From IMG/VR virus record IMGVR_UViG_3300030616_000250, positions 10,435 through 74,434 of that record: DNA of 64,000 nt; one strand, given 5' to 3'. This document shows positions 11,973 to 59,547 of this stretch, piece by piece; the stretch's first letter is position 1, and each line of letters opens with the position of its first letter. Made by a program: the position numbers and the translations under genes. The notes below the pieces were generated by a model. It saw only the letters and a list, made by a program, of their open reading frames with translations, was not told the DNA's origin and made no database searches. The DNA is from a virus.

Positions 11973-12664
11973 GATTCGTAACATGTGGTAGAATAGCATT
12001 TACCCGGCAAGTGGTTGAGTCGATATTCAAGTATAATCCTGTGGTTAGGAGATACCCTTGGATAATAGCCGATGATAACTCAGAACCGTGTATGAGAAAC
12101 TATTTTGATTCTCTTGACTTGGGTATGACCTATTTGTGGCACGAAAAACGTAAGGGGATTAATGCCAATTTAAAGCAGATGTTTGATGAGGCGCGGGGCA
12201 AATTTGACCTTCTTCTTATATTTGTGAATGACTTTGTATGTCTCAGGGAAGTGGATATTGGTGCAATGATAGAGTTTTTTGCAGATACTCCCGAAGCCGG
12301 GCAGGTGCAGATGTTTCATTGGAAAGGTAAAATAGGAGACAAGAAGCGCGAGCGCAGCATGACAAATTGGATAACCGGAGACCCTATAAAGGTCTCACAG
12401 ATACTTCAGGTGGGAAACGAAACATTATTAGAGGCAAATTGGGTATGGACAGACGGTGTTAATTTTACAAGAATACTACCGGAAGTGGATTACTTTGAAG
12501 GTTCCCTGGGACTTCCGAAAGAGGAAAAATACATTAAAATAGCCGAAATAACCAAAGGCAAAAATTTTATGGATACCGGCATGAAAATATATGAAATGGC
12601 AGATCAGCCGTTTCTTCATCTCGATCATGATGGTAAAAATAAAACAAAGGGGACTATTGCATGA
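11951..12664 (+). CDS. GT2-like glycosyltransferase
   Basis: VTCGR, IIADDNS, LIFVNDF. Confidence 0.7.
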   Translation: MVLRLGIGFVTCGRIAFTRQVVESIFKYNPVVRRYPWIIADDNSEPCMRNYFDSLDLGMTYLWHEKRKGINANLKQMFDEARGKFDLLLIFVNDFVCLREVDIGAMIEFFADTPEAGQVQMFHWKGKIGDKKRERSMTNWITGDPIKVSQILQVGNETLLEANWVWTDGVNFTRILPEVDYFEGSLGLPKEEKYIKIAEITKGKNFMDTGMKIYEMADQPFLHLDHDGKNKTKGTIA

Positions 12665-12668
12665 AAAA

Positions 12669-12725
12669 TTTTAACGTACGCCAAAAGGCTGAACGTCTAA
12701 AGATTTTAGCCTTTGGCAGTTGGGC
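12669..12725 (-). repeat. attC-like site of inverted cassette 1
   Basis: Minus strand GCCCAAC-tgccaaaggctaaaat...agccttttggcgtac-GTTAAAA. Confidence 0.8.
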
Positions 12726-13435
12726 GAAGGTTTTTCTTTTAATTAAGAAAGGTGCGACATGCTCTTTAAGTGATTTACCTCTTTTATTTAAGCATAACGA
12801 GAAACAAGATAATCAAAGCTCCAATAGTAAAATAAAAAGAAATGCGCTCACGGAATATGCTCGAAACATAATAGTCATCAATATCTTCATAATATTGGGT
12901 GTTTTGTTTCTTGTGTTCGGGATCATTAGCCATATCTTTGGTAGTAGAATCTTCGAAATATTTAGCTCGTTTTGAGTCAAGATTTCTATGTGAATAAATG
13001 TTCTTTGAAATAAGGGGAGAAGGGAAATAAAAGGTTTTATAATAGTTTAAGTGCTATTAAAAGCATGATAAGGGCAATTATAAATTTACTATCTATCCAT
13101 AGTAACATAATAAAACCCCCCATGCAACACCTTGATTTCCAGCTATTCCGTTTACCCTTTGTTTAATTAAACGCTCGGTTGCCGTAATTGGTGATTAAAC
13201 CAATTAATCGGCTGGTGGGTTTTGGTATATAGTCACCCCTGCGTTTACCAAATCAAACAAAGGCGCGCCCCCTTCTCATAAGCCAAGAAATAATCTTGGT
13301 CATAACTAACCTCCTTTTGGGAAGTTGAGGAGGGGGATTCCTCCCCGTTATTTCAAAGAGCTATGTATTAATCTTTAACAAAGGCTTTTCTCTTATGTCG
13401 CACAAGAAAAGAATCAGAGAACGAATTGAAACCAA
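12675..13435 (-). mobile_element. inverted integron-like cassette inserted in landing pad 1
   Basis: Bounded by AAC core triplets; removing it restores a perfect TTTTAAC...GTTAAAA site; internal inverted repeat 12752-12760/13395-13403. Confidence 0.75.
12786..13100 (-). pseudogene. degraded membrane-protein ORF in cassette 1 (approximate limits)
   Basis: Long open frame ending ...FYFTIGALIILFLVMLK*; hydrophobic N-terminal segment lies in a different frame. Confidence 0.3.
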
Positions 13436-13481
13436 CGAAACAAACGGTGGAAGTTTTAATTTCCACCTTTGGGAGTTAAAA
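13434..13481 (-). repeat. resident attC-like landing pad 1 (occupied)
   Basis: aac gaaacaaac GGTGGAA gttttaat TTCCACC tttggga gttaaaa; near-identical to 20375-20422; contains the RBS of the next gene. Confidence 0.8.
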
Positions 13482-14431
13482 TGAAAATACTTGTAACAGG
13501 CTGTGCAGGCTTTATCGGAACCAATCTATGTAAAAGACTCGTTGAACACGGGCACGAGGTAATAGGAATAGACAATTTCAGCTATGGTTATACTTCAAAC
13601 ATGAAAGACATAGGCTTTGGCAATTATTATGCCTCAGACGTGCGGTACTTTAACGGAGACAACTTTGGTGACATTGACGTTATTTATCATCAGGCAAACC
13701 TTAGAAAGAATATATCCTCAAACAAGCCCGACGAAGACATAGACATCACAATCCGGGGAACGTGCAATCTATTACAATATGCCATCAAAAACAATGTGAA
13801 AAAGTTTATATATGCCTCATCTTCCCTTGCATACGGCAAATCCGATCCCGTTGTTACAGAAGAGAGCCCGCTATGTCCTATTTGTATCTATGGAATATCA
13901 AAAGTAGCTGCTGAAAAGCTCGTTAAATACTATCACGGAACCAACGGACTCGAAACGACAATCCTTCGGTATTTTCAGGGTTACGGGCAGTATCAGGACA
14001 GCCAAAGGGGAGCCGCAATAATACCGAAGACTATTCGGAATATGTTTGAAAACAACCCTATTATCATAAATGGTGATGGCTCACAGACCCGTTCATTCAC
14101 TTGGATAGAAGATATTATAGACGTGCTTATGATGCCATTGTTCGATAGCAAAATGTCCGGTGAGACTTATAACGTAACAGCGGGGAAAGAGTATTCTATA
14201 ATTGAAATAATTGATTTAATAATGAACTGCTATTGTGAATTATACCCTGAGAAGAAAGTAAACAGGACTGACAGACTATGTTACAGAGCCGCCCTCCCGG
14301 ATGACATAAAGCACCTTGCGGGAAACAATGACAAGATAAGAGACCTTGGTGTTAAATTCAATATGGATATTCACGAAAACATAAAGGAAACGATAAGATT
14401 TTATGAACGTTACCATACTCAGTCATTATAG
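13481..14431 (+). CDS. NAD-dependent nucleotide-sugar epimerase/dehydratase
   Basis: ILVTGCAGFIG, YASSS, YGISK (YxxxK). Confidence 0.95.
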   Translation: MKILVTGCAGFIGTNLCKRLVEHGHEVIGIDNFSYGYTSNMKDIGFGNYYASDVRYFNGDNFGDIDVIYHQANLRKNISSNKPDEDIDITIRGTCNLLQYAIKNNVKKFIYASSSLAYGKSDPVVTEESPLCPICIYGISKVAAEKLVKYYHGTNGLETTILRYFQGYGQYQDSQRGAAIIPKTIRNMFENNPIIINGDGSQTRSFTWIEDIIDVLMMPLFDSKMSGETYNVTAGKEYSIIEIIDLIMNCYCELYPEKKVNRTDRLCYRAALPDDIKHLAGNNDKIRDLGVKFNMDIHENIKETIRFYERYHTQSL

Positions 14432-15056
14432 AAGCGGTATCTACTGGCTGATAGAGATACTGAAGCGGAACATACCGAAGTTTCACTTGTACCCTGAGAA
14501 CAACTTTGCGCACCTTGAGGTAACGAGAAACCCCAATGTGCCAAAGGCTATTCTATTGGTAAGAGACCCCAGGGATTGCTTTGTGTCGTCTTATTCCTGC
14601 AATGTACAGAGGGCTGCGAATGACAAGGCATGGGCAGAGGGTAGAAAATGGGAGGGCAGGAGTTTTAAGGACACGCTCACATGGGAATACAGGGAAGTGC
14701 TTAACCGAAATAAAGAGGTCATATTAAAGCTTAATCCCGTTGAATACTGGGTAAAATATTACACTGACTGGCTCGCTGAAAAGACCCCAAAGATAATGGT
14801 AAGATATGAAGATTTACACAATAATCAGGAATTTGAAATAAAGAGAATTCGCAGCTTTTACGGATTTGACCCTGACAAAAGAGTAGAGGCGTTGGATAGA
14901 ACAAAGTCGTATAGCTTTGAATACAAACCTACAGATACCTATACACCAAGAACACCGGGTAACTGGAAAAAGGTATTCGATCACGAAGACAATGAGTATG
15001 TATGGAAAATGGCAGGTAAACTTATGAGGGAGTTTGGTTATGAGAGAAATGGATAA
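14403..15056 (+). CDS. sulfotransferase domain protein
   Basis: SHYRSGIYWL, VRDPRDCFVS, VRYEDL, PGNWKK. Confidence 0.85.
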   Translation: MNVTILSHYRSGIYWLIEILKRNIPKFHLYPENNFAHLEVTRNPNVPKAILLVRDPRDCFVSSYSCNVQRAANDKAWAEGRKWEGRSFKDTLTWEYREVLNRNKEVILKLNPVEYWVKYYTDWLAEKTPKIMVRYEDLHNNQEFEIKRIRSFYGFDPDKRVEALDRTKSYSFEYKPTDTYTPRTPGNWKKVFDHEDNEYVWKMAGKLMREFGYERNG

Positions 15057-15633
15057 CAGGGATATACCGTGGAAAGTAACAGTACCCACAGACGAAAACA
15101 CCAAACTGTTAAGAAGCACCATTGATTATATTGCCAAGTTGTATCCACCGCCTTTGAAAGTTTTTGACGTTGGAGCAAAAGAGGGCTATTCCGTAAACTA
15201 TATGAAGAGTCTGGGATATGACGTGTTGGGAACCGATATAAGGGAAAACTTTATAGAATACGCCCAAAGTCGCGGATGGAATGTTATTTTTGACGATATT
15301 ATAGATACTAAAATAAAAGACAGGTTTGATATTGTGTTTATGAGGCATTGCCTGGAGCATGTAAGGCACGAGCGCAAGATGTTTAAAAATGGCGTGTCCC
15401 TGTTAAAAAAGGGTGGTGTTATAATAATTCAGGTTCCCATAGAGACCAAGAGCCAGTATGAAGCACACAAAAGAAAAAAGCACCTCACCTATTTCCCCTC
15501 ATTCAACTTTTTCAAAGACAACTTCCTGAAATCACAGAAAGGCGTTGAGACTGTGGTATTGGATATGGCAAGCACTTTGGGAATAGAAACAGCGGGATTA
15601 AAGGATATTTTCTATATAGGCAAAAAATTATGA
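15040..15633 (+). CDS. class I SAM-dependent methyltransferase
   Basis: VFDVGAKEG, FDIVFMRHCLEHV, LLKKGG. Confidence 0.9.
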   Translation: MREMDNRDIPWKVTVPTDENTKLLRSTIDYIAKLYPPPLKVFDVGAKEGYSVNYMKSLGYDVLGTDIRENFIEYAQSRGWNVIFDDIIDTKIKDRFDIVFMRHCLEHVRHERKMFKNGVSLLKKGGVIIIQVPIETKSQYEAHKRKKHLTYFPSFNFFKDNFLKSQKGVETVVLDMASTLGIETAGLKDIFYIGKKL

Positions 15634-16205
15634 AAAATGAGTATCGAAACAAACTCTATGAAAAACACCGGGAACCGTCATGGGACAAAGCTCACGGATG
15701 TTTCACCGTAGCCAGACTGGTCAAAGCGTTTAATGCAAAAGTAATAGCTGAAATAGGGGTTTGTGTGGGAAACACCGCAGTAGAAATATTACACGAAAAC
15801 AAGCTATTGTATTATTTAATGGTAGATCACTGGAAAGATATTTCAAAATACGAGCTTATACTTAATAACTTTTCCTCTACCGGAGTGGAAATAAAACGTT
15901 CTGATTCAATGGAAGCCCTGAAATATGTAGATGACGAATCCCTTGATTTTGTGTACATAGACACCAATCATTCATATAAGCAGGCAAAGCGTGAGATATT
16001 TGGATGGATAAAAAAGGTAAGGCGCGGCGGAGTGCTTGCGGGCGATGGCTATGGATATATCAGGAACGGAGACAATGGAGTAAAACGCGCTGTGCATGAA
16101 ATATTCAGCGCAGATCAAATAAACGTTAATCTTGGCCCGGACTGTGTGTTCTGGGTAATGAGGCCGTATGATACACGAAACAGCAAGTTTTCACGGAATG
16201 CCTAA
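15630..16205 (+). CDS. Methyltransf_24-type SAM methyltransferase
   Basis: AEIGVCVG, SLDFVYIDTNHSY, KKVRRGGVLAGD. Confidence 0.9.
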   Translation: MKNEYRNKLYEKHREPSWDKAHGCFTVARLVKAFNAKVIAEIGVCVGNTAVEILHENKLLYYLMVDHWKDISKYELILNNFSSTGVEIKRSDSMEALKYVDDESLDFVYIDTNHSYKQAKREIFGWIKKVRRGGVLAGDGYGYIRNGDNGVKRAVHEIFSADQINVNLGPDCVFWVMRPYDTRNSKFSRNA

Positions 16206-16569
16206 TGTCGGTGAATGTGTAGATATAGGCAAAAATACCAAAATAGGTCACAATGTATTTATAGGAAACTTTGTTAAGATAGGTGACAATTGTAATATTC
16301 AGGGAAATGTTTTTATACCTGAAGGTGTTATAATAAAAAACAATGTGTTTGTCGGGCCTTGTGCGGTGTTTACCAATACAAGAGACTTTGATAATATCGG
16401 CAAGCATAAATTTGATTCGACTATTGTAAAGGATAATGTTATTATAGGAGCAAACGCAACTATTGTCTGTGGAATAACAATATGGGAAAATGCCAGAATA
16501 GCTGCGGGTTCAGTAGTAACAAAAGATGTGGACGAAAACCAAACAGTGAAAGGAAATCCGGCAAGATGA
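16168..16569 (+). CDS. hexapeptide-repeat N-acetyltransferase (WbpD/WlbB-like)
   Basis: Left-handed beta-helix repeats, FVGPCAVFTN, IGANATI, GNPAR. Confidence 0.9.
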   Translation: MIHETASFHGMPNVGECVDIGKNTKIGHNVFIGNFVKIGDNCNIQGNVFIPEGVIIKNNVFVGPCAVFTNTRDFDNIGKHKFDSTIVKDNVIIGANATIVCGITIWENARIAAGSVVTKDVDENQTVKGNPAR

Positions 16570-17612
16570 TAAACGTAGCTTTTGTAGGATGTGGGCGTAT
16601 AAGCAAAAAACACTATGAAGCGGTGTCGACTAATAAGAATCTTAAACTTGTTGCCGTATGTGATATTGTTGAAAAACGTGCAAAAGACATGGCGGAGCAG
16701 GCAAAGGTTCCCTATTATCTTGATTATAACGAAATGATGCATAAGGAAAACATTCACGTAGTCTCGGTAATGACCGAAGCCGGATATCATGCAAAGATAG
16801 TAATTGACCTTGCGAAGTTTGGGAAGGTGGTTATAGTAGAGAAGCCGATGGCGCTTAAATTAAGTGATGCTGACGAGATGATAAAAGCATGTAAAAATGG
16901 CAAAACAGACCTTGTTGTTGTTAAACAGAATCGCTATAATCAAACCGTTATGAAGTTAAAGGATGCCGTAGAAAGAGGTCGTTTTGGTAAAATGATTCTT
17001 GGTACGGTTCGATTGAGATGGAACAGAAGCCAGACATATTTTGATATGGACGATTGGCGGGGTACATGGAGTCTTGATGGTGGGGTTTTCGCTTCTCAGG
17101 CAAGCCATCATGTAGACCTTTTGCAGTGGATAATGGGGCCTGTTAAAAGTGTTTATGCAAAGACCACAAGAAGACTTCTCGACATAGAAGTAGAAGATAC
17201 CGGAATAGTCATGCTTGAGTTTTATGATGGCTCTCTCGGATTGATAGAAGCAACAAACGCCGCTCAACCAAAAAACATAGAAGGCTCGTTAAGCGTTCTC
17301 GGACAAGGTGGGACTGTAGTAATCGGTGGAGTAGCGGTAAATAAACTGGAAACTTGGGAGTTCTGGGAAAAAGAAGAAGATGACGAGAAAATGTTTGATT
17401 TCAGTGAAAACCCGTCAAATGTATATGGGTTCGGACACGTTAGACTTTATAATGAAATTGTTGAAAGGGTTAAACATGACAGGGGGAATCTATTAAGCGG
17501 GGAAGAGGGCAGAAAGTCTCTTGAACTTATCAATGCAATCTATGAGAGTGCTGAGACAGGGAAAGAAGTGAGAATTAAATTTCAACCGGAACATGTGAGG
17601 TTGGGAAAATGA
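16566..17612 (+). CDS. Gfo/Idh/MocA oxidoreductase, WbpB/WlbA-like UDP-GlcNAcA 3-dehydrogenase
   Basis: VGCGRIS, VEKPMAL, VVKQNRYN, WRGTWSLDGGVFASQASHHVDLL, NVYGFGH. Confidence 0.9.
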   Translation: MINVAFVGCGRISKKHYEAVSTNKNLKLVAVCDIVEKRAKDMAEQAKVPYYLDYNEMMHKENIHVVSVMTEAGYHAKIVIDLAKFGKVVIVEKPMALKLSDADEMIKACKNGKTDLVVVKQNRYNQTVMKLKDAVERGRFGKMILGTVRLRWNRSQTYFDMDDWRGTWSLDGGVFASQASHHVDLLQWIMGPVKSVYAKTTRRLLDIEVEDTGIVMLEFYDGSLGLIEATNAAQPKNIEGSLSVLGQGGTVVIGGVAVNKLETWEFWEKEEDDEKMFDFSENPSNVYGFGHVRLYNEIVERVKHDRGNLLSGEEGRKSLELINAIYESAETGKEVRIKFQPEHVRLGK

Positions 17613-18052
17613 TAAGTGGAGATGCGTGGATTGATAACGATGTTAAATTGATAGGAGAACAGGATATTTGGCATTATGCACTTATCCGGGGTAATGCTGA
17701 AATAGGAAACAATTGCAGCATAGGCAGCTATACTGAAATAGCACATGATGTTATTATAGAGGATAATGTTCGCGTTCATTCAAAGGGTTTTATACCTGAG
17801 TATACGATTATAAAAAGAGGTGCCTGGATAGGCCCCTGTTGTACTATTGTAAATGATTTACACCCGCAAACCAACGGAAAATACAGAAAAGGAATAACCA
17901 TAGGAGAGGGTGCTATTATCGGTGCAAATACTACTCTTATGGCTGACATAGGAAAAAACGCTATTGTCGGTGCTGGTTCAGTAGTTACTAAACCCGTGCC
18001 AGAAGGAGTAATTGTTTATGGAAATCCCGCTATGCGACATAAGGGCAAGTGA
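17609..18052 (+). CDS. hexapeptide-repeat N-acetyltransferase (second WbpD-like copy)
   Basis: IWHYALI, IGPCCTIVND.HP, GAGSVVTK, GNPA. Confidence 0.9.
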   Translation: MISGDAWIDNDVKLIGEQDIWHYALIRGNAEIGNNCSIGSYTEIAHDVIIEDNVRVHSKGFIPEYTIIKRGAWIGPCCTIVNDLHPQTNGKYRKGITIGEGAIIGANTTLMADIGKNAIVGAGSVVTKPVPEGVIVYGNPAMRHKGK

Positions 18053-19127
18053 CGCTCATTACAGAGACGAAATAGACGAAGCCGTTAAAAGAATAATTGA
18101 CGACTCAAGCTTCATACTCGGTAAACCGGTAGAGGAGTTTGAAAAAAACTTTGCAAAGTATATTGGGACGAAACACGCAATAGGTGTTAGCTCGTGTACT
18201 ATGGCATTATATCTTTCTCTCAAAGCTCTGGGTATTAAAGAGGGTGACGAGGTTATAGTTCCTAATTTTACCATTGCCGCCGATATAGAGCCGGTGCTGA
18301 TGTGCGGTGCCACCCCGGTTCTCTGTGGGGTCAAAGAGGACGGTTGTATAGATGAATATGAAATGAGGAATCGGATAACAAAGAGAACAGGTGCTATTAT
18401 AGTTGTTCATTTATACGGTAACGCCTGTCCTGTTCCTGACATGGAGAAAATGACAGAAATCCCTATTATTGAAGATTGCGCCCAGTCTACAGGGACTACA
18501 TTTGAAGGACAGATGACGGGTTCATTTACAGACTTAGGTTGCTTTAGTTTCTTTCCTTCAAAAAATCTCGGTGCCTATGGAGATGGCGGAATGGTTACAA
18601 CCGATGATGATGAACTTGCAGGCACAATAAGAATGCTTCGTAATCACGGGCGGGCACCCGGAGAGCGATATCATCACAGCATGATAGGGGTAAACTCCAG
18701 ACTTAACGCTATGCAGGCAGCCATACTTAACGTAAAGCTGAAACATCTTAATAATGCCATAAAGAAAAAAAGGAAGATAGCAAAACTATACAACAAGTAT
18801 TTGAATGACATACCACAGGTTATAACACCTACTGAAATTCCAGTGGTTAATCACAGCTATTATATGTACTCTGTCAGAGCCACAGAGCGGCGTGACGAGC
18901 TGCTTAAATTCCTTGTAGATAACGGTATTAAGGCAAGTGTACACTATCCATTGCGACTGTCAGATCATCCCATATATGCAAAATATTACAGCCCATTAGA
19001 AGATGAACCGACTATTGGGTATATACTCAGCAAAACAGTTTTAAGTTTGCCAATGTTCCCCGCACTTGAAGAAGAAGCGGTTAAATATATTTGTCAGAAA
19101 GTGAGAGAGTTTTATGAAAAAAATTAA
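18018..19127 (+). CDS. DegT/DnrJ/EryC1/StrS aminotransferase (WbpE/WlbC-like)
   Basis: VHLYG, IEDCAQS, FSFFPSKNLGAYGDGG, GVNSRL. Confidence 0.95.
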   Translation: MEIPLCDIRASDAHYRDEIDEAVKRIIDDSSFILGKPVEEFEKNFAKYIGTKHAIGVSSCTMALYLSLKALGIKEGDEVIVPNFTIAADIEPVLMCGATPVLCGVKEDGCIDEYEMRNRITKRTGAIIVVHLYGNACPVPDMEKMTEIPIIEDCAQSTGTTFEGQMTGSFTDLGCFSFFPSKNLGAYGDGGMVTTDDDELAGTIRMLRNHGRAPGERYHHSMIGVNSRLNAMQAAILNVKLKHLNNAIKKKRKIAKLYNKYLNDIPQVITPTEIPVVNHSYYMYSVRATERRDELLKFLVDNGIKASVHYPLRLSDHPIYAKYYSPLEDEPTIGYILSKTVLSLPMFPALEEEAVKYICQKVREFYEKN

Positions 19128-19542
19128 CGTACGGCCAAGGTTTGTTGCAATTGCCTATAATCTCACACAAAAGTTACTGCAATTGTTTCAAACTTGGTCA
19201 GTTGTGTCTTGCCAAAATTTGCGTCATACATTCAAAAATAAGTCCAAATACACAATAAAACATCCACCCTCTCCAACAACCTTAAAATTGCTTATTAAAG
19301 AATTAGGGCACTGGAAAAGAGCTAATGATAAAAAATATAAATATAAAACTGGTGTATTTAATCCCCATGTAAAAATATGCTGTAGATGTAAAAACTGTAA
19401 TGAAACTATAAATTATGAAATACATACTGTAATGCCGGAACCTGGTTATTTTAAAATAATACCCAAAGAAGAATATGCTTATATTAAAGAAAAATATAGA
19501 AAAAGTGAAATAACTATTTTTTGTAAAAACGAATGTCTTTAA
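19114..19542 (+). CDS. chimeric ORF: landing-pad start fused through attC into a Cys-motif domain
   Basis: Starts outside the cassette; C-terminal half has CRCKNC...FCKNEC. Confidence 0.4.
   Translation: MKKINVRPRFVAIAYNLTQKLLQLFQTWSVVSCQNLRHTFKNKSKYTIKHPPSPTTLKLLIKELGHWKRANDKKYKYKTGVFNPHVKICCRCKNCNETINYEIHTVMPEPGYFKIIPKEEYAYIKEKYRKSEITIFCKNECL
19122..19207 (-). repeat. attC-like site of inverted cassette 2
   Basis: Minus strand ACACAAC-tgaccaagtttgaaacaattgc...gcaattgcaacaaaccttggccgtac-GTTAATT. Confidence 0.8.
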
Positions 19543-19753
19543 CAGGATCACCGTCAGCGTTGCTAACGCCATCAATGGCCTCAACATAAAAAGGGTTGCC
19601 ATCATGAGAAAGGCGCTGTTTAAGTTCATTAAAATAAGGGTGTTTTAAACTATGTCTATCATAAAAATCATTAGCATCCCATTTAAACGACTTTACATCA
19701 TTAAAAAGATTAAGGATTTTTTCTTTGATAATTTCATACTTTTCATCAGTCAT
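19514..19753 (-). CDS. hypothetical protein (cassette 2)
   Basis: AAGGAG RBS on the minus strand upstream of ATG. Confidence 0.65.
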   Translation of the reverse strand: MTDEKYEIIKEKILNLFNDVKSFKWDANDFYDRHSLKHPYFNELKQRLSHDGNPFYVEAIDGVSNADGDPVKDIRFYKK

Positions 19754-19785
19754 ACATACTCCTTTATATGGGGTAAGAGATAATG

Positions 19786-20292
19786 TTAATAATTTTTTGT
19801 ATGATGTTCAATAAGCTTTTTTTTAAAATCATTATAACACAAAGGTTCACCAAGTTCATTTTCCATAAATACTTCAAGCCCACATTCAGGACACTTAACA
19901 AAGGCAGCGTTATGGTCAGGCCCCCATTTGGTTTTTCTGCTTGGCTGAAAAGGAACAAGATGCTTTGGACAATAAATTTGCCAACTTTCATCATACCAAT
20001 ATTGGTTATATTTAAACAATTTAGGTTTTTCTTTGATTTTATTAATTTCGATTTTAAGTCGTTTAGTATAGGAGTAAAACATATATGTTAGGATTAATCC
20101 CAGAGATAGCATTGTGGCTATGGTGTACAGGGACCACGGGTGGCACAATTTGCTCCCTAATATGGTCGGACGAATTTTGTCTATGGCGAAAGCTATTGTA
20201 TTCAATCCTAGAGGGGATAGAAGATTCAACCATCCTTTCACTTTTTCTTTGGCTGTTTCTTCTACCGACGATATTATTAAATCCTTCAGCAT
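19786..20292 (-). CDS. membrane-anchored zinc-ribbon hypothetical protein (cassette 2)
   Basis: Hydrophobic segments, then YCPKH...KCPECG. Confidence 0.6.
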   Translation of the reverse strand: MLKDLIISSVEETAKEKVKGWLNLLSPLGLNTIAFAIDKIRPTILGSKLCHPWSLYTIATMLSLGLILTYMFYSYTKRLKIEINKIKEKPKLFKYNQYWYDESWQIYCPKHLVPFQPSRKTKWGPDHNAAFVKCPECGLEVFMENELGEPLCYNDFKKKLIEHHTKNY

Positions 20293-20374
20293 GGGGTATG
20301 CCCTTTCATAAAAATCTTTTTAGTGTATGGATAGATAAAATTGATATTTCTCTTAGCAAATTTTGGTTTGATAC

Positions 20375-20422
20375 AACGAAACAAACGGTGGAAGTTTTAA
20401 TTTCCATCTTTGGAGGTTAATT
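20375..20422 (-). repeat. resident attC-like landing pad 2 (occupied)
   Basis: aac gaaacaaac ggtggaa gttttaat ttccatc tttggag gttaatt; GGAGG RBS for 20424. Confidence 0.8.
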
Positions 20423-20423
20423 T

Positions 20424-21380
20424 ATGCCCGATAAAGTTCTCCTGGTAGCCGATGTCCCAAACTGGGCATGGATGTACAAGGCTAAAGCTATACAGAAATA
20501 CCTGAATGACCACTTCAAGAAAATAAGCGTTATCCATCTAAAGAAATTCCATAAGGGCTTAATGGGAAAATACCATACTGTGTTATTTTTCGGATGGATG
20601 GACAGGCGCAAAATAGCAGGGAAATACAAGGGGCTTATAGCGGGGGTATCTTCACATAACTTTGAGTATCTGCACCCTGAGAAAGCGAGAAAGTATCTTC
20701 CGAAATACAGTGCCATTACAGCTAATTCAATACTCATTTATGAAAAGCTAAAGGAATGGAATCTCAACAAAAACATCTACTACACACCAAACGGAGTAGA
20801 CGAGACAATATTCTATCCTAATCCGATTAAGCATGATAAGTTCCGTATAGGATGGATGGGACAGCCTTCAGGAAAGGGATTTAACCGGACAGACGGTATT
20901 GATATGCACGGCTACCACAATGTTTTGCTTCCCCTTGTAGAATCTCTTAAAGATGAAAAAGACATAGAATTTGACATACTTGCAAGGACACACAAGAATG
21001 CGAGAGCTTTTGATAAAATGCCTGAATACTATAATAATCTTGATTTATTTATTAGTACAGGCTTCGGAATTGGGACACCTAATCCGTTATTTGAAGCGCA
21101 AGCTTGCGGAGTAGCCGCAATAAGTACAGCCATAGGCGCAGCCCCAGAATTGATAGAAAATTCATTGAGCGGATTTTTAGTACCAAGATATTATAACAAG
21201 AAAGAAGCACAAGATAGAGCGGAAGAAATAAGAGAATGGATATTGTTTTTTAAGAAAGATAGAATATATGCCAATGATTTTGGTAAACGTGCAAGGCATA
21301 ATATAGAAAAACACTGGACATGGCGTGAATGCTCTAAAGCATACCTGCCTGTACTGACTAACCATAGGAAGAAAATATGA
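20424..21380 (+). CDS. GT4 glycosyltransferase
   Basis: TPNGVDETIF, IGWMG, PNPLFEAQACGVAAIST. Confidence 0.9.
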   Translation: MPDKVLLVADVPNWAWMYKAKAIQKYLNDHFKKISVIHLKKFHKGLMGKYHTVLFFGWMDRRKIAGKYKGLIAGVSSHNFEYLHPEKARKYLPKYSAITANSILIYEKLKEWNLNKNIYYTPNGVDETIFYPNPIKHDKFRIGWMGQPSGKGFNRTDGIDMHGYHNVLLPLVESLKDEKDIEFDILARTHKNARAFDKMPEYYNNLDLFISTGFGIGTPNPLFEAQACGVAAISTAIGAAPELIENSLSGFLVPRYYNKKEAQDRAEEIREWILFFKKDRIYANDFGKRARHNIEKHWTWRECSKAYLPVLTNHRKKI

Positions 21381-22312
21381 AAATAGCATTCGTATCTGAC
21401 GTAAAAGGCTGGGCGTATGACGTTACATACAAGGGAATAAGGAAATATCTCGATGCAGACCTGTATTATACCTCAGACGAACCCAGGATAAACTCTGACA
21501 TAATCAACAGCTATGACAGGGTACATTTCTTTAACTGGCTCGGTGGACAGGAACATGCGGGAAAACCCAACGTATCCGCTGGAGTTACACAACACAATTA
21601 TGAAATTAAATGGGCTGATATATCCAAAAAGTACCTTACCCGCTATAAGAAAATAGTAGCGATATCGCAAATTCTCTATGACAAGCTGAAAGAGTGGAAC
21701 CCAAATACATATCTTATTCCCAATGCAGTAGACGAGGAATTGTTCGCACCGACAGTAAATGACGGAGAGTTTACAGTCGGATTTGTAGGACAGGCAACCA
21801 CCGGGGGGTTTGGTGAGGTCAAGGGTGGCGAGGGTCGTATGAAGTGGGATATCAAGGGCTTTGAGCTTATACTTAAACCATTACTTGAACGTATGAAAAG
21901 CGTAAATTTCAAGATTCACTCCTGTGATTATACAACTGCTACGCCTTATGAGAAAATGCCTGATGTATACAAGGACATGGATGTTTTGATATGCACTTCT
22001 ATTTTTGAAGGCGCTCCGTTTCCCGTATTAGAAGCTGCGTCCTGCGGTAAAGCGGTTATTGCCACAAGAGTGGGCATAACGCCGGAATTGATTAAACACA
22101 GCTATAACGGGTTTCTGGTAGACACTCCAAGAAATAGGGGTGAAATTCCAAAAGCCATAGATGACTTTGAGCGATACATAGATACTCTAAGCAGAAGCCG
22201 TGAAATGTGCAGGAAAATGGGAGAGCGTAACCGGGAAGAAATATTGAAGAAATGGACGTGGAAGCAAATTACACCTAAATGGGAGGAGTTTTTTGATGGG
22301 AATCGGAAGTGA
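21377..22312 (+). CDS. GT4 glycosyltransferase
   Basis: IPNAVDEELF, TSIFEGAPFPVLEAASCGKAVIATRVG. Confidence 0.95.
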   Translation: MKIAFVSDVKGWAYDVTYKGIRKYLDADLYYTSDEPRINSDIINSYDRVHFFNWLGGQEHAGKPNVSAGVTQHNYEIKWADISKKYLTRYKKIVAISQILYDKLKEWNPNTYLIPNAVDEELFAPTVNDGEFTVGFVGQATTGGFGEVKGGEGRMKWDIKGFELILKPLLERMKSVNFKIHSCDYTTATPYEKMPDVYKDMDVLICTSIFEGAPFPVLEAASCGKAVIATRVGITPELIKHSYNGFLVDTPRNRGEIPKAIDDFERYIDTLSRSREMCRKMGERNREEILKKWTWKQITPKWEEFFDGNRK

Positions 22313-22592
22313 ATTAAGAGATATTAAGTGTGGGGTGTGTGGGGCTACCTATCATAATACTACTTATGACCCCAAAAAGGATATTGTTAAAGTAAAATGC
22401 ACCGATTGTGGTAATGAATGGGATGAAAAACCATTAAACAAGAGAAAGAAAACGGCAATTGAAAGGGAGGTTGTTGATTTAAGCTACAGAATAGATTACA
22501 AAGAAGTGCAACTTCACCAGACTGAAAAGCTGTTATATGGCGTGGTTAAGCAATTACTTACCAGAATTGAAGATTTGCTGGATGACGAATAA
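22296..22592 (+). CDS. zinc-ribbon hypothetical protein
   Basis: CGVCG...CTDCG. Confidence 0.6.
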   Translation: MGIGSELRDIKCGVCGATYHNTTYDPKKDIVKVKCTDCGNEWDEKPLNKRKKTAIEREVVDLSYRIDYKEVQLHQTEKLLYGVVKQLLTRIEDLLDDE

Positions 22593-22888
22593 TGCACGAA
22601 TATAATGATAATGGCTGTATTTATTTAGGCAATTGGCTTTATATTGGGCTTATAAAGCTATGGTGTTATTGGCGGGACGCTCTTAAAAAAGCCTATTGGC
22701 GTAAACGTGGCATTCCTCAATATGGTTGTGGTTATTATTCTGGCGAAGGAATACAAATACCACAATATGACACATTAGAAGAGGAAAGATTTGTTGAATT
22801 CGATAATATCGTTATTCTGCCAAGTAAAGTGTATTTCAATGCTAGAGGGATACAAATACCTATAAAGGAAAGTGATGGCAACGATTAA
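22592..22888 (+). CDS. hypothetical protein
   Basis: TAATG coupling to the upstream gene. Confidence 0.5.
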   Translation: MHEYNDNGCIYLGNWLYIGLIKLWCYWRDALKKAYWRKRGIPQYGCGYYSGEGIQIPQYDTLEEERFVEFDNIVILPSKVYFNARGIQIPIKESDGND

Positions 22889-23144
22889 AAGACGCTGTAA
22901 AAACTGCCGTTTCTGGATAAACCGGGCGTGTCACAATCCTCACATAAGGATAGGTCATGCTTTGGCGAAAAGGTGTAAGGGCTGCAAAAAGGATATCTGG
23001 TTAAACAATGAAGGCTGTGATGTCGGTTCAAACGTGGTGGAAATGGAAGAAATAATAAAAAAGGTGCTTGCTTCAACTTTTCTCCAAACAGGTAAAAACT
23101 TTTGCTGCAAGCATTGGAAAAGCAAATATGAGGGTGTCGTATGA
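22875..23144 (+). CDS. Cys-rich hypothetical protein
   Basis: CKNCRFW...FCCKHW. Confidence 0.55.
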   Translation: MATIKRRCKNCRFWINRACHNPHIRIGHALAKRCKGCKKDIWLNNEGCDVGSNVVEMEEIIKKVLASTFLQTGKNFCCKHWKSKYEGVV

Positions 23145-24361
23145 ATGAAAAATTTGAACGATTCGTAAACACGTTGATAGTTAATTTTGACAATTTTTAC
23201 AAGTCAAAAACAGGTGCCTGGTTCCTTGATGGATCGACTTTGATTGAATTTGTCTGCAATAGACGGCTTAAAGAACCCATAAATATCGGTATGGTAAATT
23301 GCAGCAAGGAGACATTTAAGGAAAGAATGTACCATTGGGAGGTTAAGGAAACCGGGGAAGATACGCTTAAAGCCGTACTTTTGGGCTACACGGTTAACGT
23401 AAAGTTCTATAAGAACCTAAATACTATCATAGCCCCTAAAGACAGGATAGAGGAAAACCTGAAGAAACGCGATACTGCCATGAACCAATACGGGGTGTGG
23501 AGGTACAATTTAGACCAATCTCATTGGTATCACTTCCCGGTTCCCTATAAAGTCGGTGGTTTTCTGGACGACACATACCCATTATGGTTTATGAACATAA
23601 AGCATGAGGATATCAGCGGTATCTCCAATGACATCTTTTTTGACGATAAAAGGTCTGAAAACGCCGTTGAGTTAATGAAATTGATACGTGAATGCGCTGA
23701 AGCTGCGGGATTCGGTAATTATGTTTTTCCTGCATTCGGGACTCTTTTGGGAATTATAAGAGAGGGAGGGTTTATAGGTTCCGATAGAGACCTGGATCAC
23801 GGGATAGCAGGATGGAAGATTACCGCACAGCAGGAAGAAAACTTCATACGTGAAGTAATGAAAGAGCGTATTGTTATTGAAAAAGCTCCCGATGGCAGGG
23901 AAGTTCCTGTAAAATACCCTCAAGGACTTGCAACCGGAAGATTCAAACACCCCCAGAAACGTAGCGATAACGGGCGTTTTTTGTGGACATCCATAGGTCA
24001 TAAGAAAATAAAGAGTCAGCAGGGGACGAAATCATGCGTGTGGAAATTCTTTAAGCATAAAGACTTTGCATGGCACTCAAAGGGAAGAAAGTGGTTAGCG
24101 GACAGAAAGTTTCCGGGAGTATTAAGTAGCCATTCCGGTAACGCTCAGGCTATTGCTAAAGGTATGCCTTTGGATATTATAGACGAATTTGTAAAAATGG
24201 AGTTTCGTGGGGTAAAAATAAACGTACCCCAAAAAGCAGGGCACTGTCTCGATATGTGGTATCCGTATGGATGGCCGAGACCGAGAAAAGACAAAAGCTC
24301 TAAAGAATATACGATGATAATAACAAGATGGGAGGACGAGAAAAAATGGAAGATGGTGTAA
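23141..24361 (+). CDS. LicD-family nucleotidyltransferase-fold protein (tandem domains)
   Basis: AFGTLLGIIREGGFIGSDRDLD; degenerate first copy FLDGSTLIEFV; FRGVKINVP...LDMWY. Confidence 0.8.
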   Translation: MNEKFERFVNTLIVNFDNFYKSKTGAWFLDGSTLIEFVCNRRLKEPINIGMVNCSKETFKERMYHWEVKETGEDTLKAVLLGYTVNVKFYKNLNTIIAPKDRIEENLKKRDTAMNQYGVWRYNLDQSHWYHFPVPYKVGGFLDDTYPLWFMNIKHEDISGISNDIFFDDKRSENAVELMKLIRECAEAAGFGNYVFPAFGTLLGIIREGGFIGSDRDLDHGIAGWKITAQQEENFIREVMKERIVIEKAPDGREVPVKYPQGLATGRFKHPQKRSDNGRFLWTSIGHKKIKSQQGTKSCVWKFFKHKDFAWHSKGRKWLADRKFPGVLSSHSGNAQAIAKGMPLDIIDEFVKMEFRGVKINVPQKAGHCLDMWYPYGWPRPRKDKSSKEYTMIITRWEDEKKWKMV

Positions 24362-24432
24362 AATTTAACTATAGAAACGGCTGTAGTTTTAATTACAGCC
24401 TTTGGAGGTTAAAATGGAAAAGGACTCAATAA
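24346..24432 (+). CDS. 28-aa mini-ORF spanning empty landing pad 3
   Basis: GGAGG RBS at 24331; MEDGVKFNYRNGCSFNYSLWRLKWKRTQ; overlaps both flanking genes. Confidence 0.5.
   Translation: MEDGVKFNYRNGCSFNYSLWRLKWKRTQ
24363..24414 (-). repeat. resident attC-like landing pad 3 (empty)
   Basis: tttaac tatagaaac GGCTGTA gttttaat TACAGCC tttggag gttaaa; homologous to pads 1 and 2 with compensatory stem changes. Confidence 0.75.
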
Positions 24433-24957: not shown

Positions 24958-25233
24958 ATGCCGGAAGTCGTAAGGTGCAGAAACAGACACGTTCATTTCC
25001 GCTCCGAGGGAGTGGGGAACATTCTATTTGTCATAGGGGAAAACGCTATCTATGCAAAGTGTACCGACAGAGGATGTAAACGCTGGACTCAGGTTAAAAT
25101 CTCTTTACCGGGCGTAAACGTAGATTTTTCCAATGCAGGTATAACCCAAAAACTCATGCCTAAAAATTTTAAATTCGACACTGACGGAAAAGACATCAAA
25201 CGCGCCCCCGTTATTATAGAGGAGAAAGCATGA
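24958..25233 (+). CDS. Com-like zinc-binding hypothetical protein
   Basis: VRC...IYAKCTDRGCKRW. Confidence 0.45.
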   Translation: MPEVVRCRNRHVHFRSEGVGNILFVIGENAIYAKCTDRGCKRWTQVKISLPGVNVDFSNAGITQKLMPKNFKFDTDGKDIKRAPVIIEEKA

Positions 25234-27296
25234 ATAAAAGCTCCGGTTTATATAGCCCCCCTTCAATAATGAAAGCTAACTATCGCAGCATAAGGTCAAG
25301 CAATACAGAAAAAGTAAAGCAGATATACCACGACAGGGAAAACGCAAAGAGGGCAATGCAGGGCGATTATGACAGGGCGGTAATTGCTAACGAGTTTGTA
25401 TTTGCTCTCAGCGGTATGCAGTGGTATGAAAAAGAACGCAAGAGACTTGACGAAGATGACCGATACGCATACCAGTTTAACGTACTTACTCCAAAACTTT
25501 ACACTATGGCAGGGGCTATTATTACAGACCTCCCAGACATAGACTGGTCGCCGATTGAGGGCGCACGGACTACAGGAACGGAAGCAGTGAAATCAACCTT
25601 CTTTACAGATAAAGAGCTTTGTGATTGGCAGTGGAACCTTGTCATGCACTTTATAGGAATGCTTACCCACGATTCATGGATACAAATGGTTGAGACAAAG
25701 AAACATCATCCTCTGGGAAACATAGCCCTTGAATGGTTAAGGCCGGGTTCTTTTGTACCATCAGCGTACTGGAAATCCAATAACGACAGGGATTGCAAAG
25801 AGGGATACAAGTCAACCTATCTTACCGCAGAAGGGATTAAGTTCAAGTATGAAGTAAACAACGAAATGATTAATCAGGCAATTGAGCGTTACAAACAGGG
25901 AAAAAGCTTGCCACCCAAAGATATAGCAGATCAGCGCGAAACCTTTCAGGGACACATAGGAGACGAGTACGAAGTCATAGAACACTTCTGGCTTGAAATG
26001 AAAAAGGACAAGCGGCTTATAGGTAGAAAAGAAGGAATGTTTCAATGGGTTCCATTTCCCATAAGTGAAGACAGGGCTTATCTTGAACAGTTTGCCACAG
26101 AGAATGAAATAGATTGGGATACCGTAGTCGAACAACCGTATGACGACATGATACAGCACGTAACCACAGTGGCCCCCTCTTTAGACCCGGAACTCATACT
26201 CTATGACGCAAAAACGAGAGTACAGGTTAAGGGTCTTTCCTTTTTCCACTCCACTACCCAGAGATACAAGGGAATGAATAAAGGTCTTGCCGAGACCATG
26301 ATGGATATTCAGGCAACAATTAACAAACGGATAAGCCTTGAAACAGAGTTAATCGAAAAGGCTAACGGGGGGAGTCAGTTAGTAAATAAAATGCTGTTTG
26401 ACGATGATAAGCAGGAGCGGGACTTTAAGCGTAACGCGGGGAAACCGGGAAGAAAATACTTGGTTGACCTTGATAAAGTTCAAAAAACAGTGGAGAATGT
26501 TCACCCCGCAGACTATCCTTCTGCGCTTATGTCTCAGATTCAGTTAATGGTGGAAACACTTTTACCAATGGTATCTCAGGTATCGGATTCATGGAGTGCC
26601 GAAAGTGCGTCAGGGGAATCTGGAATACTCTATGAGCGCAAGGTTCAAATGAACAAAATAGCCACTCTGGTTTATGATGAAGCCGTTAAGCAATTAATGA
26701 ACCACATAGGCGAGGCTTATTTCTATCAATGGCAAATTACCTATGGAGACGTAGAGCGCACAATAAACATAGAGGGCGGGAAGAAACAGGTTGTTTTAAA
26801 CGAACAGATGGATGAAATGGGAACCGTAAGGAACGCACCGTTATACACCCCAAGAGTACAGATAATCGTAAAGGAAAACCCGCGCTCACCCACAAAGAGG
26901 ACTTTAACCAGACAGCTTGCAGAAGAAGCGTTACAGAGAATCAATCCCGAAGTAAATCCATTGCTCTATTTAGACCACATGGAAATGTATATAGGTGCAA
27001 TTGAATACGATGACGAGAAAAAAGAACGCATAGAATCTGATATGAAAATAGAGAGAATGAACGCAGTGGCGCGGTTAATATCATCTACGGCACAGAGCAC
27101 AGCCACAACGAGTCAATCTGCCTTAGCTGATATGCAGGCTAAAATGGCTATGGCAGCACAGGGACAAGCAGAGCCCGGTCAAGCACAAATAGAGGAACAG
27201 GTAACAAGCCCGGAAGAACAGATACAACAGGTTCCTCAAGCAGCACAGCAACAAGCACCCCTGGAAACGGCGGAAGTCGGTGAACAGGGTATTTAA
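25230..27296 (+). CDS. portal protein (P22-like)
   Basis: G.QW.E.ER..L...R....FN, ESGESGIL..RK; Q-rich C-terminus; 688 aa; position before scaffold and capsid. Confidence 0.8.
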   Translation: MNKSSGLYSPPSIMKANYRSIRSSNTEKVKQIYHDRENAKRAMQGDYDRAVIANEFVFALSGMQWYEKERKRLDEDDRYAYQFNVLTPKLYTMAGAIITDLPDIDWSPIEGARTTGTEAVKSTFFTDKELCDWQWNLVMHFIGMLTHDSWIQMVETKKHHPLGNIALEWLRPGSFVPSAYWKSNNDRDCKEGYKSTYLTAEGIKFKYEVNNEMINQAIERYKQGKSLPPKDIADQRETFQGHIGDEYEVIEHFWLEMKKDKRLIGRKEGMFQWVPFPISEDRAYLEQFATENEIDWDTVVEQPYDDMIQHVTTVAPSLDPELILYDAKTRVQVKGLSFFHSTTQRYKGMNKGLAETMMDIQATINKRISLETELIEKANGGSQLVNKMLFDDDKQERDFKRNAGKPGRKYLVDLDKVQKTVENVHPADYPSALMSQIQLMVETLLPMVSQVSDSWSAESASGESGILYERKVQMNKIATLVYDEAVKQLMNHIGEAYFYQWQITYGDVERTINIEGGKKQVVLNEQMDEMGTVRNAPLYTPRVQIIVKENPRSPTKRTLTRQLAEEALQRINPEVNPLLYLDHMEMYIGAIEYDDEKKERIESDMKIERMNAVARLISSTAQSTATTSQSALADMQAKMAMAAQGQAEPGQAQIEEQVTSPEEQIQQVPQAAQQQAPLETAEVGEQGI

Positions 27297-45059: not shown

Positions 45060-46472
45060 ATGCCTTATAATCCCGCACAATATGTTAGACCAAGAACGGG
45101 AATCAGAGCAGGAGCAGCGGCTTTAGGTGGTGCAATTGCACAAATCCCCGGTGAAATACGTGCCGACAGGGAATACGAATATCTACAGGAACAGCGCAGA
45201 ATAGCCGTAGAGGAAGCTAAGAAAAACTGGAGCGACATGGAGCTTACATGGAAGACACTTAAAAAGCAGTATGGCGCTATGGTACAACCACTACTCGACT
45301 CTAACCAGATGACCTTTGATGAATACAGCACCAATATTAGCATGATTCCACAGCCCACACAGGTCGACAAAAAAAATCCCGGTCAATATATAGATAGGCT
45401 CACACAAGCCTATGGGTCTATTGTAAAAGACGCTAAGAAACGCATACGCACACAGGAAGTGGCACCACAGGTGCAGACAGCCATACAAGGTGGTGAGACT
45501 CCTGAGAGACAAGTAACCGAAACCACAGGATATCAGCCTGCTGCAAGAGAAGGCGCGGCGTATGTTCCATCAAAAGCTGAAGGTGCCCCGGCAGGTGCTT
45601 ATAGTTCAGAAGGTGGACAAGTAGGTGGATTTACTAAATATGAACCTACCTTTGGACAAAAAACTTTACCTCCAGAAAAAGAACCCGCAGCACGAACAAA
45701 AGAAGAAGCTTATGGTAGACTCCCCGCAGGTAGAGGAATTACAACTACAGAGTTTGAGGAATTCGGTGGGAAGTATTTGCCTACAGGAATGGATATTAAA
45801 AAACAAAAAGCTAATGAAGAATATAAAAGAAAAATGTTGGCAAGAGGGTATGGGAAGGATGCGGTTGACAATGCCTTAAAAGAATTGGATTTATTAAGAA
45901 AATTCAGAAACGACGATACCCGCGTTGAATTGTCCCTTGAAGATGATAAGAGAATGCTTACTTCTTTGAAAAGCCGTGTGCAAAAAGGTGATGCTTTAAC
46001 TCCTGATGAAATTCAACAATTAACCGAACAGGGCATAGACCCACTAACAGTACAACAGGGCGGAGAAGACTTGGCGGTAGAAATAGGAGACATAATTAAA
46101 GATACCGATGGAAAACTTGGAATTCAAAGACAAAAGTCAAAGAGAACAGAAGAGGCAATAAGATTAAAAGCAGAAAATCCCAATGCTGATATTCATGAAA
46201 TAATAAGCGAAACACAAACAACACAATATCCTCAAGGCGCACCTACTATAAAAAGCCCGCTTGGTGTACCTCCGGCAGCAGGGGGAAGAAAGCAAATAGG
46301 TAGACAGGGAACGGTAGCCGGGAGACAGGGAATACAAACACAAAAGCCCCCTTCGGCACAACCCATAGGCAAAATGGAGCAGGCTATACGAGACACACTA
46401 TCGAAAAAAGGTGTAAGCCCACAAGTAATTGAAGATTACATAGCTGAAAAGAAAGCGAAAGGACAGCTATAG
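45060..46472 (+). CDS. putative ejection protein
   Basis: AGAAALGGAIA N-terminus; helical; position. Confidence 0.5.
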   Translation: MPYNPAQYVRPRTGIRAGAAALGGAIAQIPGEIRADREYEYLQEQRRIAVEEAKKNWSDMELTWKTLKKQYGAMVQPLLDSNQMTFDEYSTNISMIPQPTQVDKKNPGQYIDRLTQAYGSIVKDAKKRIRTQEVAPQVQTAIQGGETPERQVTETTGYQPAAREGAAYVPSKAEGAPAGAYSSEGGQVGGFTKYEPTFGQKTLPPEKEPAARTKEEAYGRLPAGRGITTTEFEEFGGKYLPTGMDIKKQKANEEYKRKMLARGYGKDAVDNALKELDLLRKFRNDDTRVELSLEDDKRMLTSLKSRVQKGDALTPDEIQQLTEQGIDPLTVQQGGEDLAVEIGDIIKDTDGKLGIQRQKSKRTEEAIRLKAENPNADIHEIISETQTTQYPQGAPTIKSPLGVPPAAGGRKQIGRQGTVAGRQGIQTQKPPSAQPIGKMEQAIRDTLSKKGVSPQVIEDYIAEKKAKGQL

Positions 46473-53912: not shown

Positions 53913-54074
53913 ATGAAACAGTTTCATATCAACACTTCTAAAAAAGCAAGGGACGTAGTTAACGACGAGGTAAAGCGTAGAAACCGCTACGGCCTTGTCA
54001 AGCACACACAGGAATCGGTATCAAGCGAAATAATTTTGAAGTGGGAAGATAACCGCAAAAATGATGTTCAATAA
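53913..54074 (+). CDS. small putative DNA-binding protein (ribbon-helix-helix-like)
   Basis: 53 aa; GGAGG RBS; first gene after the promoter. Confidence 0.5.
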   Translation: MKQFHINTSKKARDVVNDEVKRRNRYGLVKHTQESVSSEIILKWEDNRKNDVQ

Positions 54075-54411
54075 TATAAACAAAAACAAAAAATTTGCTT
54101 TTATCTACGGGTTAAAACACCCTGATACTGGTAAGATTATTTATGTTGGAAAAACCTTTAATCCTATCCAAAGATATATTCAACATTCTTATTGTAAACA
54201 AACCAGCAAAATATCACGACTTTGGGGAAAACTAAAAGAAGATGGTAAAAATATGGTGTTATACATATTTGAAATGATTGAAAATAAAGGCAAAGAATAC
54301 GTTAAAGACAAAGAAAGATATTGGATAAAACAAATGGTAGAATCAGGTTGCATTTTGTTAAACAAGGTATATCCAAATGCAAGCAATCCAAATAAATCAC
54401 ATTCACTTTAA
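54061..54411 (+). CDS. GIY-YIG endonuclease
   Basis: FIYGL...IIYVGKT.NP..R..QH, E.YWI, LLN. Confidence 0.85.
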   Translation: MMFNNINKNKKFAFIYGLKHPDTGKIIYVGKTFNPIQRYIQHSYCKQTSKISRLWGKLKEDGKNMVLYIFEMIENKGKEYVKDKERYWIKQMVESGCILLNKVYPNASNPNKSHSL

Positions 54412-57450: not shown

Positions 57451-57477
57451 GAAACTTCACTTATGGGAGATTATTAT

Positions 57478-59529: not shown

Positions 59530-59547
59530 TGATATTTCAAAATCAAC

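Follow-up and report, generated by a model that had tools for sequence, protein, structure and literature searches.

We analyzed a window of 64,000 nucleotides, which spans bases 10435-74434 of the IMG/VR virus record IMGVR_UViG_3300030616_000250. This 74,434-bp record is graded complete and represents an uncultured phage of about 74 kb from marine sediment, which we call G000. Its 24-kb glycan operon contains three homologous sites of about 55 nt, here called pads, which lie between sugar-synthesis genes and of which two are interrupted by an inserted stretch of DNA. We consider it reasonably probable, though far from assured, that the pads are folded recombination sites of a phage-borne integron-like cassette system, in which two pads hold inverted cassettes, one is empty, and the pads replace the translation signals that they displaced. 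We infer that the exchange is site-specific and proceeds via a folded single strand, that the cassettes can leave again, and that the ribosome site of the pad keeps the downstream genes expressed.

The three pads lie on the + strand at positions 13426-13485, 20367-20426 and 24359-24418. When their repeat cores (13433-13479, 20374-20420 and 24366-24412) were compared, copies 2 and 3 showed 94% and 74% identity to copy 1, the repeat had no match in 100 shuffles, and these three copies were the only ones in the whole 74,434-bp record. Pad 1 consists of AACCAAC, a 4+7-bp stem with a bulged C, the loop GTTTTAAT, GGGAG and GTTAAAA, and the ATG of the epimerase gene is at 13481. Pad 2 has the same layout, with one G.T wobble in its stem, followed by GGAGG and GTTAATTT, and the first GT4 gene begins at ATG 20424. 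The unoccupied pad 3 starts with ATTTAAC and has the stem GGCTGTA/TACAGCC around the loop GTTTTAAT, then GGAGG and GTTAAAAT. Sites 1 and 2 differ from site 3 by three double, compensatory changes in the 7-bp stem, and at all three sites GGGAG or GGAGG is found 5-7 nt ahead of the ATG of the next gene. A preliminary description of this DNA had reported three homologous pads with compensatory stem changes, each holding the ribosome-binding site of the next gene, and our analysis bears out both statements. In addition, in silico deletion of 12675-13435 (761 nt) or 19128-20376 (1249 nt) exactly reproduced the terminal boxes and short open reading frames (mini-ORFs) that it had described, and positions 24346-24432 do encode the 28-residue peptide that it had read there. 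The observation itself is therefore confirmed as real and beyond chance.

The sequences that interrupt the first two pads are discrete. Cassette 1 (12676-13436, minus strand, 761 nt), whose crossover would lie anywhere within AACG, contains only tiny minus-strand ORFs of 16, 28 and 49 residues, two of which are strongly hydrophobic. Cassette 2 (19129-20377, minus strand, 1249 nt) carries two minus-strand genes, one (19786-20292) encoding a 168-residue ORFan with a membrane segment and a Cys-rich C-terminus, and the other (19514-19753) a protein of 79 residues. None of the cassette proteins matched a Pfam or PHROG family, and the 168-residue protein had no homologue in a word-based search. The G+C contents of the two cassettes are 0.36 and 0.32, versus 0.39 for the operon. 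Genes run on the + strand almost throughout the genome, and the ORFs of the inserts belong to the very few exceptions. The minus strand of cassette 1 also shows, within 12980-13345, a structured-looking stretch and a G+C-rich hairpin (13327-13346) just before a ribosome site; this cassette, for which Rfam gave no match, could be a small toxin and RNA module.

At its left end, each cassette carries a hairpin site of its own; these sites and the junctions are given on the + strand. Junction 1 (12661-12675) contains a stranded ATG at 12661, which overlaps the stop codon of the GT2 gene, and an outer box ATTTTAAC (12668-12675) that pairs with 13475-13482. The hairpin site of cassette 1, LE1 (12665-12729), consists of AAC, GTACG, an imperfect stem CCAAAAGGCT/AGCCTTTGG with a 17-nt loop, and GTTGGGC. 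Similarly, junction 2 (19114-19128) contains a stranded ATG at 19114 and an outer box AAATTAAC (19121-19128), which supplies the stop codon of the DegT gene, and the hairpin site of cassette 2, LE2 (19122-19207), is made up of AAC, GTACGG, an imperfect stem of about 20 bp with a bulge and a 3x3 internal loop, a 24-nt loop and GTTGTGT. A covariance model (R1) trained on six sites, with LE1 excluded, scored LE1 at 26.3 bits (E 0.003), and LE1 is a diverged member of the pad family. The same model gave no match at LE2, which was identified by its fold and by its box pairing (7 of 8 with the other end of the cassette).

The order of elements at each filled locus is box a, hairpin, box b, cargo, box c, pad hairpin and box d. 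Boxes a and d, which stand at the two outer ends, are complementary over 8 nt at both loci, and boxes b and c, at the two ends of the cargo, over 5 nt each (for cassette 2, 7 of 8 overall), whereas the present neighbours a/b and c/d share only the 3 nt of the AAC/GTT triplet. Among background AAC..GTT pairs in the window, a complementary run of at least 8 occurs in 0.11% and one of at least 5 in 6.9%. Moreover, the pad and LE sites have almost nothing in common but AACG, yet both cassettes join exactly there. Such a nested pattern is what remains when two palindromic sites exchange reciprocally at the border of the box, which is the logic of integron cassettes. We took the pads to be the resident sites and the LE sites to have come with the cassettes, because the unoccupied third site is of the pad type, because the cargo genes then precede their own site, and because the arms of LE1 resemble those of a gene array at 57.4-60.0 kb.

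This array consists of seven tandem one-gene units (57444-59991, + strand), which are bounded between ACG and TT, and every unit contains an internal box ending in AAC to which its own first 10 nt are complementary. The AAC boxes lie inside their own ORFs, 117-161 nt before the end of the unit. The first 10 nt match their own box at 9, 9, 10, 7, 10, 8 and 9 of 10 positions, as against 4-7 for the adjacent upstream unit; given that two pairs of units are paralogous at their ends, this amounts to about five independent cases. The arms beside the boxes pair too, for example CAGACTATGC with GCATAATCTG. Between paralogous units, homology stops exactly at the internal AAC, and on this basis exchange may have occurred inside genes too in the array.

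We also conducted two pattern scans of IMG/VR, in which the loop and a few flanking bases were fixed, together with two closing stem pairs of the seven in the first scan and none in the second. The scans yielded four perfect hairpins, in the unrelated contigs L026, L027, L059 and L061. In each of them all seven stem positions pair, a 6-bp outer stem and a single bulged base are present, and the AAC and GTT boxes keep fixed distances. The outer stems of these sites compensate (GCCAAA/TTTGGC, GCGAAA/TTTCGC and GGCAAA/TTTGCC). The nine remaining viral pattern matches showed 0-3 of 7 stem pairs and no fold. The family occurs in at least five phage lineages, represented by the genomes G000 and four others, G001-G004 (records IMGVR_UViG_3300028920_000145, IMGVR_UViG_3300017963_000411, IMGVR_UViG_3300009285_004309 and IMGVR_UViG_3300037504_000539), among which G003 is distantly related to the present phage and G002 is related to G004. 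The family layout is AAC, a 13-bp stem with one bulged base, the loop GTTTTAAT and GTT; sites of the pad subfamily measure 52-56 nt, with conserved loop and flanks, and there are only 3-5 copies per genome. In 185,579 prokaryote genomes the pattern matched 14 times, always with at most 5 of 7 pairs (two of them forced by the pattern), and none of these matches folds. Given that these prokaryote matches, which serve as a negative control, fail to fold, the result suggests that the hairpin subfamily is restricted to phages. Rfam gave only chance-level matches for the hairpin.

When six sites from four phage lineages were aligned, 93.8% of the cells paired and 7 of the 16 pairs changed on both sides, a covariation that was reached by none of 500 shuffles and that fell far lower in slid registers. 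AAC and GTT were invariant at fixed distances in all six, and matches to the full 7-mer (RYYYAAC/GTTRRRY) were partial. The GTTTTAAT strand gives the more stable fold in 10 of 12 sites, and all five wobbles in well-folded members are G.T on this strand, whichever strand the neighbouring genes use; in G001, G002 and G004 it is antisense to all neighbouring genes. Because the strand bias and the G.T wobbles persist where the neighbouring genes lie on the other strand, these features point to a fold that acts as a single DNA strand rather than as an mRNA element. The genes of the cassettes occupy the strand opposite to the one that folds and are followed by the site of their cassette, and the same arrangement is seen in the array and in G001-G004. 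Two further loci of the family can be mentioned here. In L026, from an unrelated 40-kb phage, a 71-residue gene beside the hairpin site (590-870) is flanked by a 17-nt direct repeat, GCGRACGTTGTAYGAAA, and may be another single cassette. In G003 (13949-14205; L068:1500-1760), two hairpin sites lie 195 nt apart just after a polyvalent-protein gene, where an oppositely oriented gene block meets the main gene direction.

Next, we compared the operon with the alleles of relatives, which cover junctions 2 and 3. Contig L014 aligns collinearly with the window, starting at DegT and continuing past the portal gene, with 70-76% DNA identity (65% in the GT4 protein) and three gaps. At junction 2 of L014, the DegT and GT4 genes overlap by ATGA, with neither pad nor insert, and the ATG at 19114 of the window, which opens the second mini-ORF, falls within 4 nt of the GT4 start position in L014. 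At junction 3, the whole solo pad unit is absent from L014 (55-68 nt missing), and the downstream gene starts there at the ATG that heads the third mini-ORF of the window. The corresponding gene of the window restarts after pad 3, and its N-terminus aligns residue for residue with that of L014. Given that L014 has neither pads nor inserts at these two junctions, the pads were acquired and not built in. The preliminary description had viewed them as docking sites built into the operon. The part of this view that stands is that these are homologous sites of recombination type, two of them interrupted by discrete cassettes at the AAC box and one unoccupied; the built-in origin does not.

The same comparison bears on the mini-ORFs. 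The one at the solo site (24346-24432, + strand) opens with the former start codon of the downstream gene, which is the ATG that L014 uses, and it stops 17 nt beyond the present start at 24414. Where the pads are filled, the corresponding frames extend into the inserts for 104 and 142 codons and terminate a long way from the following start, so that no coupling to that gene is left; the earlier proposal of mini-ORFs as coupling devices is not supported. As the ATGs of the mini-ORFs lie within 4 nt of the L014 start position at junction 2 and exactly on it at junction 3, the mini-ORFs are the stranded original initiation regions of the downstream genes. We also noticed that removal of the 56-nt solo unit gives an in-frame fusion, with four extra residues relative to L014; this is probably a coincidence.

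A scan with the GT4 protein led to two near-identical metagenome contigs, L015 and L016, whose GT4 proteins are 77-78% identical to that of the window. The site before their GT4 gene has a fourth complementary stem (GTTTGTA/TGCAAAC), an intact 6-bp outer stem and the same cassette as pad 2. In the L016 cassette, the orthologue of the 168-residue protein is only 52% identical over its C-terminal part, versus 78% for GT4. At L016:655-670, CTAGG stands where the pad's GGAGG has decayed, and 17 nt beyond it there is a new AAGGAGG; in this contig the GT4 frame begins at ATC, with no ATG, GTG or TTG in reach.

Based on these results, we propose the following course of events. The pads would have arrived at the 5' ends of three operon genes and stranded the old start codons, which left the mini-ORFs as dead ends, and each pad would have brought a new Shine-Dalgarno sequence ahead of the start codon now in use. 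Pads 1 and 2 would then each have taken in one circular cassette when the pad and the hairpin site of that cassette (LE1 or LE2) underwent reciprocal exchange at the AAC/GTT box, while pad 3 stayed unoccupied. The cassettes would lie backwards in the operon, and the downstream gene would still be translatable because the pad carries the new Shine-Dalgarno sequence before the start codon used. The enzyme could be a host recombinase, or an Xer-like or integron-type tyrosine recombinase of a co-infecting phage. Among the four other carriers, only G004 has an Xer-like recombinase, a protein of 382 residues (L061:717-1865) whose gene is next to replication genes, at a distance of 1.6 kb from the two sites, and this could simply be a lysogeny integrase.

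Several observations weigh against this proposal. A six-frame search of the complete 74-kb record, with positive controls, gave no match to the tyrosine recombinase family PF00589 at E<=1, and neither a serine recombinase nor a Y1 transposase (PF01797) was found in the same way; likewise, no protein common to all five carriers was found at blastp E<1e-4. The pads alone fold weakly, with -5 to -8 kcal/mol and z-values of -1 to -3.7. The complementarity of the boxes, taken by itself, fits either hairpin as the resident one. The polarity of the sites is also a mirror image of the integron one: in attC sites, extrahelical bases of the bottom strand lie toward the 3' end (PMC3053210), whereas the pads, LE sites and array sites carry the bulge, as well as the longer spacer, on the 5' arm of the gene-complementary strand.

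The comparison with relatives adds further difficulties. A start-codon region of about 9-13 nt is duplicated on both sides of the solo pad, which site-specific exchange does not explain. A 590-nt insertion relative to L014 (22297-22886), which contains no hairpin, lies exactly at a start codon and shows the same duplication; it carries two small + strand ORFs, one of them encoding a zinc ribbon. Because this pad-less insertion shows it too, the duplication is general to gene insertion in this lineage and is not evidence for a transposase. No empty or differently filled allele of the same pad was found; the only other allele with a pad, that of L015 and L016, holds the same cassette. In a contig of about 85% identity from a marine-sediment run, the end of the GT2 gene is joined to the first 95 nt of insert 1. 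Given that L016 keeps a diverged orthologous cassette and that the sediment contig keeps the joint of GT2 and insert 1, both cassettes are old residents. The excision joints 12674/13436 and 19127/20377 were not seen in the only public run that contains any of the stretch (6% of its words), but this run consists of a relative's short contigs that leave most of either insert uncovered, and their absence there counts neither for nor against excision.

A wider claim can be made from the same data, namely that phages own a cassette-exchange system distinct from that of integrons, with AAC...GTT sites of mirror polarity, a recombinase that is undescribed or supplied in trans, and sites that double as portable translation-start modules. 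We regard this as possible but rather doubtful.

We also considered the possibility that the pads are regulatory connectors comparable to the stem-loops known as PeSLs, in which a hairpin and a ribosome site form a standard expression cassette and blocks are gained by homologous or microhomology recombination without a dedicated recombinase. PeSLs of T4-type phages (Arbiol et al. 2010, PMC2839356; Comeau et al. 2014, PMC4122927) are strong early sigma-70 promoters and number about 50 copies (PMC2839356). Like the pads, they are intergenic phage stem-loops that end in a Shine-Dalgarno sequence and start codon, flank ORFans and stand at the borders of insertions and deletions between close relatives; PeSLs also mediate such changes and give mini-circles (PMC2839356). 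The ribosome site carried by the pads, the start-codon duplication at the pad-less insertion as well, and the lack of any recombinase found in the phage would all agree with this explanation. However, no sigma-70-like promoter was found in 12500-13600 (0 versus 3.3 expected by chance) or, at pad 2, in 19000-20500, and there are just 3-5 copies per genome. The exchange position is fixed, in that both cassettes join exactly at AACG though pad and LE are otherwise dissimilar, and the nested complementarity, in which cassette ends pair with their own far end and not with the neighbour, is not predicted for local regulatory hairpins. In addition, the hairpin is on the non-coding strand in the four other phages. 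Therefore, we think this explanation unlikely.

A third reading is that the pad is an RNA or translation element, such as a hairpin for mRNA processing or stability or the site of a regulator, which travels with the inserts, and that the AAC/GTT pairing merely extends its stem. The hairpin does immediately precede the ribosome site in three cases, G.U wobbles are tolerated on the + strand (the strand of the mRNA for this operon), and L016 keeps the stem despite the loss of the inner ribosome site and its replacement further downstream. However, the antisense orientation of the GTTTTAAT strand in G001, G002 and G004 and the failure to match Rfam speak against it, and it leaves unexplained both the interruption exactly at the AAC box and the pairing across the cassette. 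We consider it quite improbable.

IS200/IS605 elements and their miniature derivatives use strand-specific hairpins and insert beside a short fixed motif. The inserts could accordingly be viewed as a non-autonomous single-strand-hairpin transposon of this kind (IS200/IS605-like, or PATE- or MITE-like) that inserts 3' of TTAAC, with the solo pad as a derivative without cargo. (A/T)TTAAC is found at each of the three left borders, CAAC closes the cargo, hairpins lie near both ends with one strand folding better, and the solo copy is of miniature form; nevertheless, this is very improbable, since no Y1 transposase was found in G000 (the other four genomes were not searched for Y1), the borders of the cargo exclude the pad hairpin, the empty junctions of L014 lack TTAAC, about 9-13 nt are duplicated at the solo pad, and the nested complementarity fits a reciprocal exchange of two palindromic sites better than cut-and-paste. 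We also rejected an intrinsic terminator (a loose scan accepts only the minus strand of pad 1, and the family as a whole does not have T-rich tails) and a dif/Xer site (a 7-nt resemblance only, seen by eye).

The operon lies upstream of a P22-like portal gene (25230-27296), within a long + strand block of sugar-modifying genes that encode GT2, an NAD-epimerase, a sulfotransferase, a methyltransferase, a GFO/IDH oxidoreductase, a DegT aminotransferase, two GT4 proteins and a LicD-like protein. No DNA similar to the operon, to either cassette or to the array was found among 50,697 GenBank phages, and queries with DegT or GT4 gave no close relatives among viral contigs and none in contigs of prokaryote genomes. 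At the protein level, 35 relatives of GT4 were found. The DegT gene (18017-18724) shows 98-99% identity to contigs from a marine-sediment run, while its neighbouring genes show only about 85%, which looks like a recent mosaic exchange of one gene. Positions 46472-53455 encode a polyvalent protein of 2327 residues with ART-PolyVal (ADP-ribosyltransferase) and LPD38 domains. G003 encodes a homologue, the PHROG families that it matches are giant ones whose function is unknown, and none of its relatives has a solved structure. N4-type hairpin promoters for a virion RNA polymerase were considered, since the hairpin lies on the template strand ahead of small genes, and were rejected, as this large protein is a polyvalent protein and not a polymerase. 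Away from the pads, we noted a free-standing GIY-YIG gene (54061-54411) and two genes that weakly resemble HNH endonucleases, in contig L055 (1257-1937 and 2965-3483).

If the sites are active, they would provide a concrete route by which accessory genes ("morons") enter tightly packed co-transcribed modules without polar damage, phage mosaicism would be tied to folded-DNA recombination rather than to chance illegitimate events, and short sequences are now defined for direct recombination and reporter assays. If a phage-specific system is indeed true, the pads would be reusable entry points for accessory genes, at which cassettes could be inserted even backwards in the middle of a long late operon while the genes behind them stay connected. 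The short ORFs also invite a comparison with ORF-11 of attI1, which increases translation of the first cassette. Both cases involve a short ORF that crosses the recombination site and terminates at the next start codon or close to it; in the present phage, however, it is the leftover start of a displaced gene, and the next start is no longer reached at the filled sites.

Integron-type sites in phages have so far been seen as rare attC clusters found with bacterial models: clusters without an integrase were reported in 17 of 10,705 phage genomes, and IntI1 recombined five of six tested sites (Qi et al. 2023, PMC9892861). The present case shows the sequence logic of cassette exchange in an integrase-free phage, with a hairpin family seen only in phages, reversed polarity and single sites at gene starts. 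Compared with attC sites and integrase-less clusters of them (CALIN), the pad subfamily differs in being short, in its conserved loop and flanks and in having been found only in phages, and its members sit singly at gene starts in a long co-directional operon and carry a ribosome site. The likenesses are nevertheless numerous. Both are imperfect palindromes with AAC...GTT boxes, a bulged base and one strand that folds better, and in both the loop length varies (here 8, 17, 24 and about 100 nt across the pad, LE and array sites). In both, the cassettes are bounded between G and TT, the 5' end of the cassette pairs with its own far box, and the genes are followed by the cassette's site; as with CALIN, there is no integrase nearby in this phage. 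The analogy with integrons thus holds at the level of sequence logic, which is a comparison of layout and not a score from an attC model.

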